A DNA stretch of 41,826 nt from a virus (Duplodnaviria > Caudoviricetes), in IMG/VR virus record IMGVR_UViG_3300020530_000015, positions 1 to 41,826 of that record; one strand, given 5' to 3'. This document shows, piece by piece, positions 1,660-31,645 of this stretch. Positions within the stretch are counted from its first letter, which is position 1, and each line of letters starts with the position of its first letter. The position numbers and the translations under genes are program-made. The notes beneath the pieces are model-generated. The model saw nothing but the letters and a program-made list of their open reading frames with translations. It was not told the origin of the DNA and did no database searches.

Positions 1660-3712
1660 GCGAGACATCGCCATCCCGTGCCCGCAGTCCATCGACCGTC
1701 GTTTGGCCTGTTTGGCGGATTGTCAACTTTTCCTCGAGACGTACTTCGCCGACGTGTTCTATGAAAAGTTCACGGCTGACCGTGCAGACATGATTCAGTC
1801 AATCATCAATGCCGCGATGTTTGGCGGAGACCAGGCGATCGCCGGGCCTCGCGGAGAAGGCAAAACTCGCCTGGCTCTGTTCGTCGCATTGTGGCTGGCA
1901 ATCACCGGCCTTTCGAAATTCCCGATCGTTATTGGCAAGTCGCAAAGCAAAGCCCAGAACGAGCTAAAAGGAATCAAGGAAAAGCTACAGCAATCCGAAC
2001 TGCTGATCGCAGACTTTCCCGAGGTCGGAGTACTGTTCAAAGCCGTCGGCGGATGGAGCAGCCGAGCCCGCATGCAGACAGTCCGTGGACAGCTTACGAA
2101 CATCGAGCTAGCTTCCGATCACCTCATATTCCCGAAGGTTGAACGATGGCAGTTGCCGGCAGACTGGCCGAAGAACAGCGAGCCAGTAAGCCGAGGCCAG
2201 ATCATTGCCTCGCTCGGCGTTGACGGACCGATCCGCGGCACCAACTATCGTGACCAACGACCAACCATCGCAATCATCGACGACATCGAAGACCGAGAAG
2301 CAGCGGCATCCGATACGCTGATTGCCAAGAACGAGGAGGTGATTGAGCAAGACATCGCAGGGCTCGGCCCGAGCGGCGTCCGCATTTCCCGCGTCATGCT
2401 GTGCACGACCCAAAACCGCAAGTGCATCGCCTATCGGTACACCGACCCAAAGCTGAAGCCATCTTGGAAGGGAAGACGCTACCGAAAAATGGTCAAGCGA
2501 CCCGACCGCATGGACTTGGTTCAGCAATATATCGAGATGCGTCAAAACCGATCCGAGAAAGACCCTGATGCCCGGGAAGCGTTTCGATTCTGGCGAGACC
2601 TTAAAAGCAACATCGAAGATGGCTGCGTCGTCTCCAATGCACAATCTTACGACAAGAGGTTGCACGCGGATGGTGAACCGATCGAACTATCGGCCGTTCA
2701 AGCGTACTTTAACCGCGTGGCCGATTTTGGTGAAAAAGCGGTTGCGACAGAAATTGACAACGACCCGCCGGAGGAGGCGGGCCCGGTCGGAGCTGGGCTC
2801 ACCGCAGCGATCATTACCAGCCGAGTCAACGGACTGCCTAGAAAGATGTGCCCGTTGAATACGGCAGCGATTACCGCGGCTATCGACCTCGGGAAGTATC
2901 GTTGTCACTGGGTCGTCTGTGCCTGGTGGAATGGTGCCGGCGGTGCTGTGATCGATTACGGAGTTGCCGAGGTTACTGGTACCGATACATCGATGGATCA
3001 TGAAGGCAGCGAACCGATGATCTACCGTGCTTTGCTGGAATGGCGAGACGCTATTTTGGCCAAAGAGTACATCGACCAGGCCGGCGAGCGTCGACAGATA
3101 GACTTCGCTCTAGTTGACTCTGGGACGTTCACCAATGCCGCCTATGAGTTTTGCCGGCAGGTTCGATCGCCATTCCACCCGTCAAAAGGGTTTGCCCCGT
3201 ACTACCCGAAGAAAACCTCGTCGTCTTCCGTGCTAGCTGGAAGCAACCTGCACGCTTCTAGGTTGGATTCTCAAGGACTTTGGCTATACGAGCTTGATAC
3301 CAATTATTGGAAGCAATGGGTGCACGAACGATATTTGACGCCGACGTTTGACGAACAAAACATGCTGCGGCGTGGCTCGCTGTCGCTGTTTGAGCTAGAC
3401 GGGAACCAGAAGCACCAAGCCTATGCTCATCACATCGCGGCCGAAGAGCTAGTTACCTCATTCAAGGAAGGCAAAGGGGCCAAGACGTTTTGGAACGTCA
3501 AGTCGGAAAACAACCACTGGCTCGACGCGACGTACATGGCCGCCGCATGTTCTGAGGTTTGCGGGATCAAACTGATTGCTCCCTCGGAGGTTGAGCTATC
3601 GCCGCAACAGCTCAGCGACAAACCAAAGCCAAAGCCTAAGCCAGTGCAGCAAAGGCAGCACGGCAAGTTTCGTTCTCGTCCAGGAGGGTGGATTCCCAAG
3701 CGAAGATGGTGA
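1493..3712 (+). CDS. terL: Terminase large subunit (gpA-like nuclease domain)
   Basis: Walker A GPRGEGKT, Walker B IAIIDDIE, nuclease motifs AIDLG, VDSG, NHWLDA; alternative start 1607. Confidence 0.9.
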   Translation: MSINNVEDWLTSLSTSELKSLLGSRLPVELQSQPSKPKMDERTRQRIMMAKKRAAERDIAIPCPQSIDRRLACLADCQLFLETYFADVFYEKFTADRADMIQSIINAAMFGGDQAIAGPRGEGKTRLALFVALWLAITGLSKFPIVIGKSQSKAQNELKGIKEKLQQSELLIADFPEVGVLFKAVGGWSSRARMQTVRGQLTNIELASDHLIFPKVERWQLPADWPKNSEPVSRGQIIASLGVDGPIRGTNYRDQRPTIAIIDDIEDREAAASDTLIAKNEEVIEQDIAGLGPSGVRISRVMLCTTQNRKCIAYRYTDPKLKPSWKGRRYRKMVKRPDRMDLVQQYIEMRQNRSEKDPDAREAFRFWRDLKSNIEDGCVVSNAQSYDKRLHADGEPIELSAVQAYFNRVADFGEKAVATEIDNDPPEEAGPVGAGLTAAIITSRVNGLPRKMCPLNTAAITAAIDLGKYRCHWVVCAWWNGAGGAVIDYGVAEVTGTDTSMDHEGSEPMIYRALLEWRDAILAKEYIDQAGERRQIDFALVDSGTFTNAAYEFCRQVRSPFHPSKGFAPYYPKKTSSSSVLAGSNLHASRLDSQGLWLYELDTNYWKQWVHERYLTPTFDEQNMLRRGSLSLFELDGNQKHQAYAHHIAAEELVTSFKEGKGAKTFWNVKSENNHWLDATYMAAACSEVCGIKLIAPSEVELSPQQLSDKPKPKPKPVQQRQHGKFRSRPGGWIPKRRW

Positions 3713-3717
3713 AAACA

Positions 3718-3960
3718 ATGGCAAAGAGGAAGCGAGAACATCGGTTACAGATCCCAATGGAGACACGGCTTGAGCCAACGCCGGACGTTCGTCTGATTGA
3801 CGAGCCAAAGCCTCGCGAGTTCGTCCCTCGGGACTGCTCAATGTGTGCAGCCAATCGACCACCGCGAACAAACTACTCCCGAGTCTACGCCAAGCACGGC
3901 AAGGTTCGATATTGCAAGTGCGGCTTTTGCGGCAACACCTGGGCACAAGAAGGCCCGTAG
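3718..3960 (+). CDS. Small zinc-finger protein (Ogr/Delta-like)
   Basis: CSMC...RYCKCGFCGNTW. Confidence 0.55.
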   Translation: MAKRKREHRLQIPMETRLEPTPDVRLIDEPKPREFVPRDCSMCAANRPPRTNYSRVYAKHGKVRYCKCGFCGNTWAQEGP

Positions 3961-17975: not shown

Positions 17976-17990
17976 GATTTGTCCCCATTA

Positions 17991-18020
17991 AAAAGCCGGA
18001 GCCAATCCCGGCGGCTGGCG
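17991..18020 (-). repeat. 30-bp leader hairpin repeat, copy 2
   Basis: 28/30 identical to 18281-18310. Confidence 0.8.
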
Positions 18021-18036
18021 TGTTGATAAGCCATAC

Positions 18037-18267: not shown

Positions 18268-18280
18268 AAATTAACCTTTG

Positions 18281-18310
18281 AAAAGCCGGAGCCCATCCCG
18301 GCGGCGGGCG
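18281..18310 (-). repeat. 30-bp leader hairpin repeat, copy 1
   Basis: On the minus strand GCCGGGA-loop-TCCGGC followed by TTTT, just before RBS and ATG. Confidence 0.8.
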
Positions 18311-18369
18311 GGTAAAGTTAGCCGACTCCCGTTTTTCGTTTCCCGCGGCGGCCTGTCCGTCGCTTGTGT

Positions 18370-18404: not shown

Positions 18405-18654
18405 ACACAAAAACCGACACGAGAACGGAATTTTCGGGAATTTATTTACCGTGACAATTTGCCTCAGTTGGCATACCATCCGGAATACGACTGGGTCGGC
18501 GGGATGGCTGGGTCGAGATAGTGCAGCTCGAAAACCCGGCTAGAGGTTACACAAAAGATGACATCGTTGTTTGGCCGTCGTTCTTCGGTCATCTTCGACC
18601 CGTGACGGCTTTTCTTTGTTTTGTATTGTACGTCACGCAGCTACAATAGGAACC

Positions 18655-19171: not shown

Positions 19172-19283
19172 GAGGTCGCGGGGCTGGTGCCTCGCCGGAA
19201 CATCGGACCCAACGCAGGCGAGGTCGATCCGCCACGGTTTACACCAGCAGTTGGGAGCCAGGTTCGATTCCTGGGCGACTTCA
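19172..19283 (+). ncRNA. tRNA-like structured RNA without a canonical D or anticodon arm
   Basis: GAGGTCGC/GCGACTTC closing stem, T-arm CCAGG-TTCGATT-CCTGG, internal stems GCTGGTG/CACCAGC and CCTCGCC/GGCGAGG. Confidence 0.55.
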
Positions 19284-19367
19284 TAAACGCAGCGAGAGTG
19301 TTTTCAAGCTTTTCTGGCTCGTTGCGGCGGGCGGCGGCACGGTGCCAAAGCCCGTTTGGAAATTAGG

Positions 19368-19458
19368 AGTGATCGCTTGGGTTTACCGAGTCGCGGAGAA
19401 AAGACTATGCAAAATGAAAAAACGTTGGCCGCGACTTCGGTACAACCCATTGTTCCAC
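19368..19458 (-). mobile_element. attC-like site 1 (left end is the insertion junction)
   Basis: GGGTT/AACCC, TACCGA/TCGGTA and GTCGCGG/CCGCGAC stems with two single-base bulges, ending in GTTCCAC. Confidence 0.75.
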
Positions 19459-19685
19459 GGCCTGTCGTCTTCTGGGTGTTGGTTGGACATTGGGAAGGCA
19501 CGCCGTTTCCGATCATGCGAGGTCAAACACCGCCGCCGTTTTCGGTGTGGTCGGTGACAGACCAAAAGCATTGGGAAGAGTTGCGAAGCGAGAAGTATTA
19601 CACGCGACGGTCGAAGTCTCGGCCAGTCGCAAAAGTGGATCGTGAGTTTCAGAAACAAACCGGCAAAGACGTTTGGGAAGAATGA
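19407..19685 (+). CDS. Cassette A ORF1, starting inside the attC loop
   Basis: GGAG-N9-ATG in the hairpin loop; MQNEKTLAATSVQPIVPRP... Confidence 0.6.
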   Translation: MQNEKTLAATSVQPIVPRPVVFWVLVGHWEGTPFPIMRGQTPPPFSVWSVTDQKHWEELRSEKYYTRRSKSRPVAKVDREFQKQTGKDVWEE

Positions 19686-19981
19686 TGCAGAGCGTTAAAG
19701 ATTTGGAAACATCGCTCAAGCAGATGGAAGCAGAGCGAGATTACAACGTAAGGATGCAAAAGTTTTTCGATGAAGAAGGCCACGAAGGGGCCGCGAAGTC
19801 ATACGAACGCAAAGCGTTCTGGTATCAGATCGCGTGCAACTCGATTAAGTATGAAATCAAACAGCAGCACGAAAACGACCCATACGCTAAATGCGAGTCT
19901 CTTGAAGAGTGCTTCCAGGTTTTCATGGAAGAAGATCCTCAAATGCGAAAGTTTTTTGGAAAGGACAAAGATGGCAAGTAA
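19682..19981 (+). CDS. Cassette A ORF2, hypothetical
   Basis: ATGA overlap with ORF1. Confidence 0.6.
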   Translation: MMQSVKDLETSLKQMEAERDYNVRMQKFFDEEGHEGAAKSYERKAFWYQIACNSIKYEIKQQHENDPYAKCESLEECFQVFMEEDPQMRKFFGKDKDGK

Positions 19982-20267
19982 CACGTTTACGATTGAATTG
20001 TCAGACCAGGACCGACGACGCATTGATGCGTTGTGCAAAGCGATGTGCCCAACGGGCACGGTCGCCGTGGTCGTCTACGTGGAAACCGTAGGTTTCACGG
20101 ATGGCGTTCACCTGTTTAGCAGCGTAGACGACGCGGAGCGTTGGATGCTGCAAGAGATTCGGCAGCATGGCGGCGAGCAGTCGCATTTGACGCTGGACGA
20201 GTTTCAGAAGCGGCTCAAGCCGAACGAGGATTTTTGGATTGTTGACGTTCACGATAGGCGTCGGTAG
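19971..20267 (+). CDS. Cassette A ORF3, hypothetical
   Basis: AAGGA RBS; stop 2 nt before the cassette end motif CCGTGGAAC. Confidence 0.6.
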   Translation: MASNTFTIELSDQDRRRIDALCKAMCPTGTVAVVVYVETVGFTDGVHLFSSVDDAERWMLQEIRQHGGEQSHLTLDEFQKRLKPNEDFWIVDVHDRRR

Positions 20268-20271
20268 GTCC

Positions 20272-20361
20272 GTGGAACGATTGGATTAACCCAGCCGCCG
20301 TGGTTGGGCTTCCATCAAAGAAAACGATATTCGGCGGCTTGGGTTGAATCCTTTGTTCGCC
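20272..20361 (-). mobile_element. attC-like site 2
   Basis: Minus strand GGCGAAC-AAAGG-ATTCAACC...GGTTAAT-CCAATC-GTTCCAC, the canonical R''-L''...L'-R' layout. Confidence 0.85.
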
Positions 20362-20376
20362 TGCTTTAGTGACGCA

Positions 20377-20559
20377 ATGCAAGAACCATTACCAATGATG
20401 TGTGAGCGTAACGGATGCGACAGGCAAGCCGTCTACGATTGCGAACCGATCCCAGGGACAGCCGAACCGGGATGGGAAGACGAACCAACGGCAAGGTGCG
20501 AAGAACACTCAAAGGGTTTACTGATTCTCAGGAGGGTCATAGATGTTTCCAAAGATTAA
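20377..20559 (+). CDS. Cassette B ORF1, small Cys/His zinc-binding protein
   Basis: CERNGCDRQA...RCEEH. Confidence 0.5.
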   Translation: MQEPLPMMCERNGCDRQAVYDCEPIPGTAEPGWEDEPTARCEEHSKGLLILRRVIDVSKD

Positions 20560-20677
20560 AAAGTGGCGTGGGCGTTGGCAGTTCCAGTGGTTCCGCAAGG
20601 GGCGTCTGCATTACGGAACAGACTCTTTTCGGCGATGGCTTGCGTACCCGATTCGCGTGATTCGGGGTAAGGTCTGA
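20543..20677 (+). CDS. Cassette B ORF2, 44-aa Arg/Trp-rich peptide
   Basis: GGAGGG RBS; MFPKIKKWRGRWQFQWFRKGRLHYGTDSFRRWLAYPIRVIRGKV. Confidence 0.45.
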   Translation: MFPKIKKWRGRWQFQWFRKGRLHYGTDSFRRWLAYPIRVIRGKV

Positions 20678-20688
20678 GTCAGGCGAAC

Positions 20689-21222
20689 ATGATGATCAGC
20701 GTCAACGGAATGCAAAAGATCGGCAAGTATCCAAAGATCATGGTACTCGCGAAGATGCGAGGCAATGCCGGAATCACGGTCAAGGACGTTCAGAAGTTCA
20801 TGGATTGCGACGCTCGGCAAGCGATCAGCTATATCACGCAATGCCGGCAGAAACGCTGGCTTCGCGTCGAGGGTCGAAAGAAGCTTAACTACGTCTGGGT
20901 TGCATCGGCAGCATACGACAGCTGGCTGCATGCACAGGGCGACCCGACGTTTAAGCCCGAGAGGCTCTATCCATCGGTGGCAAGAGACATCCTTCTAAAG
21001 GGACACGACGAGGACTTCGTTCCTCGCGGACTTGGCACGCCAACGCAACACCCAATCGGCAGCGAAGCAAAGATCGAAGTCCTTCGGCAGCGGGTCGAGC
21101 AAGGCTACGAGCTTTTCCATCCAGATGACTCGAAGGAGTGGGACACGACCAAGGCTAAGCCCGTCGAGGAAATCAAGACGACGAAAATCACAGTTTCTAA
21201 CAGGAAGTTTCTAGCAGATTAA
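20689..21222 (+). CDS. Hypothetical protein, possible N-terminal winged helix
   Basis: 177 aa; C-terminal PTQHPIGSEAKIEVLRQR...LFHPDD. Confidence 0.65.
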   Translation: MMISVNGMQKIGKYPKIMVLAKMRGNAGITVKDVQKFMDCDARQAISYITQCRQKRWLRVEGRKKLNYVWVASAAYDSWLHAQGDPTFKPERLYPSVARDILLKGHDEDFVPRGLGTPTQHPIGSEAKIEVLRQRVEQGYELFHPDDSKEWDTTKAKPVEEIKTTKITVSNRKFLAD

Positions 21223-29363: not shown

Positions 29364-30155
29364 ATGGTACACAAATTTTTCGAGTGCGATGAATGCGGCA
29401 ATCATTCGGATCAATACTTTGTTCTGCTGTCTTACGGTGGTGGAGTCAACAGTACCGCATTACTGGTGGGATTGGAGGAACGCGACGAACGACCAGACGC
29501 AATCCTCTTTTCCGATACAGGCGGCGAAAAGCCGGGAACGTATCAGCACATAGAACGAATGCAAGAATGGTTAGCGTCCAAGAAGTTTCCTCCAATCACG
29601 GTGGTAAAGCAAAAGCTAACGCTAGAGGCAGATTGCTTGGAGCGTGAAACGCTTCCAGGGAAAGCCTTTGGTTTCGGATCGTGCAGCGATAGATTTAAGA
29701 TACAACCGCAAAAGAAATGGTTACGAGACAACGACATCAAAAACCCAATGTGGTTGGTCGGAATCCATAGCGGCGAAAAACATCGTGCGGAACGCACATT
29801 GAACCAAAGGACAGACGTTAGATTTCCATTGATCGAATGGGGTTGGGACCAAGAGGATTGCATCGAAGCTATTCGATGTGCAGGGTTGCCGATCCCGATT
29901 AAGTCAGCGTGTTTCTATTGTCCGTCGATGCGAAAAGCAGAAGTTTTGGCGTTAGCCAAAAGTGACCCCGAGCTGTTTCAGCGAGCGGTCGAAATTGAGC
30001 GAGTAGCGAAAGAGGCTGGCACGTTGCAAACCGTGAAAGGTTTGGGGCGTCTATGGTCCTGGGAGTCGCTCGTCAAGGCGGACGAATCACAGTTGAGGTT
30101 GCCATTGTTTGACGATGTGCAAGCCCCGATATGTGACCAGTGCGTCGATTGGTAG
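29364..30155 (+). CDS. PP-loop (PAPS reductase-like) enzyme, cassette C
   Basis: SYGGGVNST, FSDTGGE, FKIQP, FPL, KSACFYCP. Confidence 0.85.
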   Translation: MVHKFFECDECGNHSDQYFVLLSYGGGVNSTALLVGLEERDERPDAILFSDTGGEKPGTYQHIERMQEWLASKKFPPITVVKQKLTLEADCLERETLPGKAFGFGSCSDRFKIQPQKKWLRDNDIKNPMWLVGIHSGEKHRAERTLNQRTDVRFPLIEWGWDQEDCIEAIRCAGLPIPIKSACFYCPSMRKAEVLALAKSDPELFQRAVEIERVAKEAGTLQTVKGLGRLWSWESLVKADESQLRLPLFDDVQAPICDQCVDW

Positions 30156-30159
30156 ATCA

Positions 30160-30249
30160 GCAGAACGCTCACATTAAACCAGCGGCGAGAGTAAATGCTG
30201 CCATTGCAAACCAACGTTATCGCCGCTTGGTTTCAATGTGTTGTTATGC
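30160..30249 (-). mobile_element. attC-like site 3
   Basis: ACATT/AATGT, AAACCA/TGGTTT and GCGGCGA/TCGCCGC stems with the same two bulge positions; GCAGAAC...GTTATGC ends. Confidence 0.85.
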
Positions 30250-30267
30250 GGCGATTGAGGGTTAGAC

Positions 30268-30468
30268 ATGGCAAGCACGGAAATTACGGTGTCAGTAAAG
30301 GACACGGAAACATTCGCGAATCTTCTTGAGGCGTCGTTTAAGTTTTTTGCGTGGTACAACAAGACGTACCAGCAGCAACCGAGCAACCACCCCGAACATC
30401 CTTGGTGCAAACTTGGGCAAGTTCTGCACGAGTTGTCGGATCGTGGCATCGCGGAACCATCCGCATAA
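30268..30468 (+). CDS. Cassette D ORF, 66-aa hypothetical
   Basis: GAGGG RBS; TAA stop lies within the cassette-end CCGCATAAC. Confidence 0.65.
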   Translation: MASTEITVSVKDTETFANLLEASFKFFAWYNKTYQQQPSNHPEHPWCKLGQVLHELSDRGIAEPSA

Positions 30469-30474
30469 CGTTAC

Positions 30475-30578
30475 GGATCGGCGGCGTGGTGGGAACACGC
30501 AGGAGTGTTGGCTACATGCCCTCGTGGCGACGGCCACCGCTGGCTCCAGCGAAGCAGGTTCGAATCCTGCCCGATCCA
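30475..30578 (+). ncRNA. tRNA-like RNA with an expanded anticodon arm
   Basis: Acceptor GGATCGG/CCGATCC+A, D-arm GCGT/ACGC, GGAGT/GCTCC stem enclosing ~36 nt, T-arm GCAGG-TTCGAAT-CCTGC. Confidence 0.65.
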
Positions 30579-30644: not shown

Positions 30645-30911
30645 ATGAGACCATCTATGAAAGCAATGCACAGAACAACGATCCACGCACGATGTCCGTT
30701 TGCACCTGTTTGGGATTATTACAGCGTGCAAATCGAAACAAAAGACTTCATCAGATGCGAAAAAATCGAAGCCATCTGCGAAGAGATTCGCGGGCAGCAA
30801 ATTTCACAAGAAATGGTTTTGGAGCTTCTTCGGAAGAAGCTGAATATTGAATGCAAGATAACCGTAAAGGGTCGTCACGGCCAAAACGGAAGGCTGGTTG
30901 TTGTCGAATGA
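30645..30911 (+). CDS. Minimal QueF-like T-fold protein
   Basis: ARCPFAPVWDYY (Cys/Asp pair as in QueF CP....DF) and ISQE. Confidence 0.6.
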   Translation: MRPSMKAMHRTTIHARCPFAPVWDYYSVQIETKDFIRCEKIEAICEEIRGQQISQEMVLELLRKKLNIECKITVKGRHGQNGRLVVVE

Positions 30912-31645
30912 TTCACTACCACGGAACGCCATGCGGAGCAACACGGGAAGATGTTGCTAGATTCCTCAGGAATCGTCACGCCTTGATTTCGTTTTTTCGA
31001 CCGGAAGACATCGGAACAGCGGCCGAAGTGTGTCAATCGTTTTGCATCGACAACGGGGCTTTCTCTGCGTGGAAGCAGGGCAAAACGATTGACTGGTTGA
31101 ATTACTATCGATTCGTCGATGATTGGAAGCATCACCCAGCGTTTGATTGGGCAATCATTCCAGATGTAATCGACGGCGACGAGCGACAAAACAACGATTT
31201 AATCGACGAATGGGAGCGGTCCTTGCGTGGAACAATTGGCGTTCCAGTGTGGCACATGCACGAAAGCTTAGATCGGCTTGATTGGCTCGCATCAAATTGG
31301 GCTCGCATTGCGATTGGTTCAAGCGACATTTACGCGACGGTAGGTAACGACCGTTGGTGGCGACGCATGGCGGAAGCTATGAAAGTCGTCTGCAATGATG
31401 GCAGGCCACGCACCAAGCTGCACGGGTTGCGAATGTTAGACCCAGCAGTTTTTACCGCGTTGCCTTTGGCAAGTGCCGACAGCACGAATGCGGTACGAAA
31501 TTCATCGAGCTATAGCCGGTTTGGGATGTACTGTCCGCCAAACGCATCGACGCGGATGGCGATTATTGCGGAGCGAATCGAATCATTCCAATCGGCATCT
31601 TTGTGGGATGGATGTCCAAAGGAAGATGCGTTTACGCTTTTCTGA
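30908..31645 (+). CDS. TGT/DpdA-like transglycosylase
   Basis: DNGAF, IIPDVI, VPVWH, IAIGS, HGLR and SADST in TGT-fold order. Confidence 0.65.
   Translation: MIHYHGTPCGATREDVARFLRNRHALISFFRPEDIGTAAEVCQSFCIDNGAFSAWKQGKTIDWLNYYRFVDDWKHHPAFDWAIIPDVIDGDERQNNDLIDEWERSLRGTIGVPVWHMHESLDRLDWLASNWARIAIGSSDIYATVGNDRWWRRMAEAMKVVCNDGRPRTKLHGLRMLDPAVFTALPLASADSTNAVRNSSSYSRFGMYCPPNASTRMAIIAERIESFQSASLWDGCPKEDAFTLF

Follow-up and report, generated by a model that had tools for sequence, protein, structure and literature searches.

Probable backward integron-type cassettes in a phage genome, with a first gene that likely starts inside an attC hairpin

Introduction

What are integron attC sites doing in a phage genome in which all of them run against the genes beside them, and does one of them supply the start codon of the gene that follows it? 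Integrons are treated as bacterial adaptation devices, and the polarity of attC is taken to point the cassette genes away from the platform promoter. The origin of the cassettes themselves is a long-standing open question. A first-pass annotation of the phage studied here, made from the letters alone, proposed that its attC sites are inverted relative to the genes and that the recombination site doubles as a portable module for translation initiation.

The window that we analysed is the whole of IMG/VR record IMGVR_UViG_3300020530_000015, a virus of 41.8 kb (41,826 nucleotides) that is rated 100% complete. Its genes include those for a terminase, a lambda-type portal, a capsid, RecT, a helicase, a methylase and Mom. 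The sequencing runs that contain window sequence come from freshwater or lake metagenomes according to their labels (14 runs matching at least half of the words, five of them flagged as a possible source), and there is no RNA run among those listed. The locus is a good test case, since an empty allele and alternative alleles coexist in near-identical phages. We consider it probable that the window carries backward integron-type cassettes whose absence and exchange fall on exact junctions, that an outside integrase likely moves them, and that the first gene of the first cassette likely starts in the attC hairpin.

Results

The window was scanned for canonical attC geometry, i.e., AAC, a 5-nt spacer, an 8-nt L'' with an extrahelical base, a 7-nt L', a 6-nt spacer and GWT. 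Exactly three full attC sites were found, all on the minus strand, at 19368-19458 (site 1), 20272-20361 (site 2) and 30160-30249 (site 3). This bears out the earlier reading of three full canonical sites on the minus strand with all ORFs on the plus strand. Dinucleotide shuffles of the window gave no match in any of 20 at the strict threshold, and one match in each of two of the 20 at a looser threshold. L' and L'' pair 7/7 at all three sites, and the folding z-scores at the sites range from -3.1 to -4.9 on both strands. Since the cassette ORFs are all on the plus strand, the order of a typical cassette (a top-strand gene, then attC) is reversed in three whole cassettes and in a partial cassette that carries a PP-loop gene. 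No tyrosine recombinase (PF00589) match was found in this record, and array A, the group around sites 1 and 2, fits a CALIN, a group of at least two attC on one strand within 4 kb that has no integrase near it.

Array A is inserted between a phage AGGAG motif (19365-19369, plus strand) and the phage gene at 20689-21222, and has displaced the motif from that gene. Positions 19368-19373, within site 1, are the left half of a GAT-core insertion site, and the outer box of site 1 as integrated reads GAT, not GTT, because it is a remnant of that insertion site. The crossover of site 1 falls between 19373 and 19374. Cassette A1 (19374-20277, plus strand, 904 nt) then consists of the attC body, three ORFs and a closing box. 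The first ORF (19407-19685, plus strand, 92 aa) has its first 17 codons inside the attC, followed by a conserved core; the second (19682-19981, plus strand) overlaps the stop of the first, and the third lies at 19971-20267 on the plus strand. None of the three has a Pfam or PHROG family match. Site 2 has its crossover between 20277 and 20278, the point at which natural alleles diverge, and opens cassette A2 (20278-20687, plus strand, 410 nt), with short ORFs at 20377-20559 and 20543-20677. The A2 closing box (20682-20688, plus strand) holds the right end of the array between 20687 and 20688, directly 5' of the ATG of gene 20689-21222, and this end is likely a reused insertion point.

Of the two attC in array B, one is full and the other is a half site. 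Cassette B1 carries a PAPS-reductase-family (PP-loop) gene (29364-30155, plus strand; Pfam PF01507, phrog_424). The half attC (29395-29427, minus strand) comprises the right arm, L box and R box, lacks the left arm and was missed by the covariance model described below. The PP-loop gene had been described as reading through the right arm of its attC; the read-through is there, at about 29395-29427, in a site that has lost its left arm in this genome and is whole in a relative (L077). Site 3, with its crossover between 30165 and 30166, opens cassette B2 (30166-30468, plus strand, 303 nt), whose 66-aa ORF (30268-30468) has its stop codon in the closing box (30463-30469). Behind sites 2 and 3 the genes have start codons downstream of the attC, and an internal SD-like motif with ATG is found in one of the three full attC sites of the window, namely site 1.

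Several other features lie around the arrays. Two tRNA-like folds on the plus strand, each with an acceptor-type stem and a T-arm, are found about 80 nt 5' of array A (19172-19284, z -2.4) and directly 3' of array B (30475-30578, z -3.0). Both were missed by ARAGORN and Rfam, which gave no match anywhere in the window. A 39-nt direct repeat, 87% identical, occurs in the control region at 17985-18023 and 18275-18313. The sister phage L001 has a 200-nt insert (its positions 1577-1777) at window position 18321, adjoining the second copy of this repeat, and a 1.9-kb insert (2024-3960) at 18568 with a tRNA-like stretch at the insert end. The Mom-family gene (584-1291), the PAPS-reductase-family gene and a queuine tRNA-ribosyltransferase-like gene (30645-31645) suggest DNA-modification functions, one of them as cassette cargo.

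We next consider which unit moves. The R boxes pair 7/7 on circularisation of A1, A2 and B2, and in A1 the closing box and its own right box are complementary over 9 nt. Such pairing across a gene is compatible with either reading of the unit, so it is the array ends that decide polarity. At the left, the outer box of site 1 is a degenerate GAT, and the right end of each array is a bare box complementary to the right box of the last attC. These ends predict the cassettes A1, A2 and B2 as delimited above, and an empty allele in which the AGGAG at 19365 stands 5 nt before the ATG at 20689. The predictions held. Sister phage L001, about 99% identical, carries a different 330-nt cassette, attC first, between the same two junctions as A2. 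L010 has this same 330-nt allele, and L011 has a third allele of 614 nt in the A2 slot, with no attC likeness in the stretch 3' of it. The whole 904 nt of A1 recurs at 88% identity in another context (L019), and in L077 the similarity to the window stops at exactly 30165.

The empty site was seen as an exact 1,314-nt skip in two runs (X9 and X12) of the six examined from 23 listed. In X12 a 73-nt contig has 38 and 35 letters on either side, none between, and one differing letter. The empty joint in X9 has 29 letters on one side (flagged weak), and its depth of 20.6 together with 52 for the filled path matches the flank at 73. The empty allele occurs in run contigs only, with none among the assembled sister contigs, and no circular cassette was seen. 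A further allele in runs X6, X12 and X13 departs from the window at 19370, just past the AGGAG, and gene 20689-21222 lost this motif upon insertion of the array.

At array A, cassettes are thus gained or lost at the crossover points, with three alleles and an empty allele; a GWT core at the junction accompanies the empty allele, as in attG-type insertion, and the natural junctions coincide with the predicted AAC. The mobile unit is attC, then gene. The unit order proposed in the first-pass annotation is supported by the alleles, the two empty-site runs and the exact junctions. From this order and established attC anatomy (PMC5027507) it follows that the coding strand is the bottom-type strand, and IntI would cut the coding strand of these attC.

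It could be argued that the attC are fossils of old integrase events and that the present variation has been spread by homologous recombination only. The genome has no integrase, it encodes RecT, and the PP-loop site has decayed, all of which fits such a view. However, three alleles and an empty allele with base-exact junctions and 1-2 nt of flanking identity, in phages that are about 99% identical, indicate a site-specific event of its own for each allele. We therefore regard the fossil explanation as unlikely.

The second question is where translation of the first A1 gene begins. The motif GGAG-N8-ATG (19395-19409, plus strand), a likely ribosome-binding site and start codon, spans the stem top and loop of site 1. 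It had been described as GGAG-N9-ATG within the loop. The motif and the ATG are present, the spacing is N8, and the GG belongs to the pairing at the top of a stable stem in the RNA, not to the loop. As had been claimed, the ORF from the ATG at 19407 continues in frame across site 1's right arm.

Homologs of the 19407 gene allow this start to be followed across different attC. The set comprised 44 sequences, of which seven were too short or gave no match and four had no attC box directly before the core; the remaining 33 represent 21 distinct attC variants. An in-frame ATG lies 39-48 nt 5' of the GTT in 20 of the 21, and the sole exception, L018, has lost the left arm. A start downstream of the GTT had been named as an observation that would speak against the proposal, and no start codon lies between the GTT and the core in any of the 21 variants. 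Residue W23 is invariant among 22 aligned proteins of the family and would be lost with a later start. The phase from crossover to GTT is 0, 1 and 2 in 8, 10 and 1 of 19 variants, so it is the loop ATG, rather than the crossover, that the reading frame follows. The varying phase also rules out, for this family, the separate idea of a frame fixed at the crossover.

The pattern extends beyond this gene family. With all frames considered, an SD-like motif plus ATG was found on the coding strand in 27 of 68 distinct related attC and on the other strand in none of the 68, counts that are inflated by related copies among the sites. In 26 of the 27 it is at 39-51 nt, and loop shuffles gave a mean of 3.6 and a maximum of 9 in 500. 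This test is not specific everywhere, because it is also positive on the top strand in 20 of 40 attC of a host genome, G018 (arrays L113, L114 and L116). Leaders of the attC type use two frames and are found on proteins of 14 unrelated groups (in 15 clusters, of which one is a truncated member of the first). Such leaders on unrelated domains are what the first-pass annotation had proposed to look for. PP-loop homologs are found both with and without attC-type leaders. In L006, L035 and L036 the 19407 core domain is found behind a further, cysteine-rich domain, and in L006 and L036 its start comes from an attC in the other leader frame.

Alternatively, the loop ATG could be incidental, with translation beginning at an in-frame TTG (19377), 7 nt past the displaced AGGAG, or arising by coupling, and the leader being functionless read-through. 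The TTG could serve in this one context. In addition, the SD is partly in the stem, conservation of the leader sequence is poor, and some homologs have no leader (P0019 and many PP-loop proteins). Yet the TTG is present in only 8 of the 21 variants and its AGGAG is specific to this insertion site, the frame is kept by the ATG despite the varying phase, and the strand and position bias is strong. We consider an incidental ATG rather improbable. The ATG at 19407 is likely where the first A1 gene has its start codon, judging from these sequence comparisons.

Are backward cassettes a property of the phage or of its host? When sites 2 and 3 were turned into a search pattern, it had 23 bacterial or archaeal matches, none of them an attC by the scanner, compared with seven of eight viral matches. 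Since the pattern was too narrow for hosts, a covariance model was built instead from 60 phage-side attC. It gave no match in the three genomes first tried, and in 28 of 151 genomes of the phylum to which a Planctomycetaceae genome belongs it gave matches of up to 77 bits. Two named close homologs of the PP-loop protein are from Pirellula and Allorhodopirellula. Because the attC family is present in this phylum and the PP-loop homologs come from these genera, we infer that the phage host is a planctomycete.

Planctomycetota chromosomal cassettes, scored in regions of eight genomes, are canonical in 80 of the 88 that could be assigned and inverted in eight, with nine more having no ORF; 72 of the 80 come from two genomes. 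At phage-like loci 37 of 43 cassettes are inverted under the same longest-ORF rule, which scored the other six as canonical. Only 5 of 120 host attC have an SD-like motif and ATG on the bottom-type strand, and two arrays of G018 adjoin IntI genes in normal geometry. The inverted cassettes are a phage trait, because the chromosomal cassettes of the phylum are canonical. The statement in the first-pass annotation that inverted attC are described for integrons of Planctomycetota is therefore not upheld; 'inverted' in the available text of the literature refers to the orientation of the integrase (PMC4889954, PMC9668308).

Complete platforms occur in related phages. Among nine other phage records, eight have no tyrosine recombinase and the ninth has one weak match. 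An AT-rich motif is shared by 5 of 18 array ends; it resembles the attI of G018 and also the Shewanella attI printed in the portion of PMC9892861 available to us. This attI-like motif is absent from the window, where a diverged attI is possible. In L015, whose array includes a homolog of the 19407 gene, the motif lies 100 nt 5' of a gene, the IntI at positions 4908-5951 of L015, that scores above the TIGR02249 integron-integrase cut-off. A further 13 IntI loci were found in viral records, and all 12 that were checked are above this cut-off, so that the list above it is L015, L135, L137 and L141-L150. Three IntI-bearing records carry a homolog of the portal of this phage. An IntI-class integrase, an attI-like site and an attC array occur together in L015 and L138-L142.

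The platforms share one layout. All 30 attC matches in the loci from the IntI search lie upstream of intI on the opposite strand, and the attI-like motif is directly upstream of intI. Genes are inverted in 28 of 35 platform cassettes, the longest-ORF rule scoring seven as canonical, and 13 of 37 attC have an internal start. A Pc promoter at the attI side could not express these cassettes, as their genes would point toward attI. L138 and L139 have the same attI and intI with a different first cassette. In L138 the stretch before the attI-like site (about 1880-1970) is repeated at the contig start (1-80), possibly as a duplicated cassette end or an assembly effect. In a small IntI tree with thin sampling, from which L139 was omitted as a duplicate, 11 of 13 viral or phage-like rows form one clade (97/98) apart from three chromosomal IntIs, to which the L015 IntI is 30-35% identical. 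For the phage studied here we lean towards an enzyme of the phage-borne IntI clade acting in trans, and a host chromosomal IntI is a realistic though less favoured source.

These platforms bear on whether ordinary host cassettes were simply caught by chance, either with only the rare reversed-gene ones kept or from a host lineage with inverted cassettes. The shared attC family, the eight inverted host cassettes and the documented insertion at GWT secondary sites (in the available text of 10.1101/2022.09.11.507474) are all compatible with this. Against it, host arrays are overwhelmingly canonical and their attC seldom carry a bottom-type start, the cargo is phage-type, and the viral records have their own IntI clade and attI-like site. 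Chance capture from the host is thus very unlikely.

The last observation concerns attC bodies that have changed genes. Among 76 pairs of similar attC bodies, 36 have dissimilar downstream DNA, a few of these being truncated relatives. Nine pairs were chosen from the top of the 36-pair list, and blastn found no downstream match in them. Identity ends no more than 5 nt from the G of the right GTT in seven of the nine; the other two share 12-13 nt beyond the GTT, which a GTT crossover does not explain. This comparison of sequences suggests that the start module has been reassorted between genes at the second (right) GTT. Top-strand excision between two sites would give such a pattern of swapped bodies with the boxes staying complementary, and top-strand recombination has been reported for some attC in the portions of PMC5027507 and PMC9892861 available to us.

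A mirror-image attC, with the minus strand recombinogenic and canonical units of gene then attC, would fit the R-box complementarity across the gene equally well and the switching of bodies at the right GTT in some pairs, but is largely refuted by the junctions and hardly credible, since alleles part immediately past the left box and come together again at a bare box without an attC body, the empty allele drops site 1 together with the downstream genes, and the L077 match ends at the B2 junction.

Discussion

We suggest that the cassettes of this phage would move by normal attC chemistry, in units of attC followed by gene. The strand to be folded, and cut at the left box, would be the coding strand, the one whose extrahelical bases lie opposite the AAC, and a related phage or the host would supply the integrase in trans. 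The first cassette to enter would have been A1, with a GAT secondary (attG-type) site between the AGGAG of a phage gene and that gene's ATG as its point of entry. Later, different second cassettes would have entered at the same point in different lineages, a point that takes the place an attI would have. The promoter of the phage operon itself would drive the reversed genes, with the newest cassette last. With the hairpin at the 5' end, the ribosome-binding site, the ATG and a leader of 15-20 residues would have moved into it in about 40% of such cassettes, so that a cassette could be translated wherever it landed in a phage operon, and with an internal start no cassette would depend on the ones beside it.

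The idea of a portable initiation module needs to be qualified in this light. The loop start is conserved and the leaders do occur on unrelated domains. However, the attC travels with its own downstream gene: bottom-strand recombination moves both together, so the cassette is self-starting and does not lend its start to a neighbour. Portability between genes needs a second, inferred crossover, in which occasional top-strand recombination at the right GTT would give an attC body and its start signals to a different gene. This is the least certain step of the mechanism.

Tentatively, and with slightly more doubt than belief, we hypothesize that planctomycete phages run an integron system of their own, with a phage IntI clade and a pool of backward phage-gene cassettes that integrase-less phages tap, in which bottom-strand recombination moves cassettes and top-strand recombination grafts the attC start module onto genes. 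If so, top-strand grafting would be a visible route of cassette creation. It is testable, since within one phage gene family some members bear attC-derived leaders, joined near the GTT, and others lack them. The reversed polarity would silence host cassettes in phage arrays and phage cassettes in host arrays. An integron on the phage side that had an integrase clade of its own, reversed genes and attC-borne start signals would extend the integron model, and site-specific shuffling would explain part of phage mosaicism.

Neither reversed cassette genes nor attC-internal starts nor a phage IntI clade turned up in the literature that we searched, in which subscription papers were thinly covered and the supplements of PMC9892861 and 10.1101/2022.09.11.507474 may bear on the matter. 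Phage-borne attC clusters are already known from the available text of PMC9892861. As set out there, phage CALINs have attC that recombine with IntI1 with a bottom-strand preference, and they share with the present arrays the integrase-less clusters and the presence of several ORFs between some sites. Complete phage integrons are treated in that text as captured host fragments; it mentions neither genes of reversed polarity nor a start within attC nor an IntI clade specific to phages, and its supplementary maps could bear on orientation.

With integron cassettes as presented in the accessible portions of PMC5027507 and PMC8352920, the phage cassettes have in common the R and L boxes, spacers, extrahelical bases and AAC crossover, the complementary boxes at both cassette ends and the tandem arrays. 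They differ in that the genes are on the bottom-type strand and the attC leads the gene, in that about 40% of related phage sites have an SD-like motif, an ATG and a leader, and in that the cargo is phage genes. The attG sites and SALINs covered by the available text of 10.1101/2022.09.11.507474 likewise have a GWT core at the insertion and cassettes outside an integron, with excision possible there, whereas in the present case a phage carries the site, further cassettes have likely used it again, and an empty and three filled alleles exist in nature.

Two further systems are close in one respect each. ORF-11 in attI1 and the small attC ORFs (PMC8876359 and PMC11511950, in the parts at hand) also place translation signals in a recombination site. 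Those act on the next cassette by coupling and on the top strand, whereas here the site starts its own gene on the opposite strand. In the inverted-integrase integrons of Treponema and Spirochaetota, as far as the available text of PMC4889954 and PMC9668308 goes, intI and the cassette genes run in the same direction, as they do in the phage platforms. There, intI is flipped relative to attC. The phage platforms do not have this arrangement, given that every attC match is on the strand opposite intI; their intI and attC keep the normal relation, and it is the genes that are flipped.
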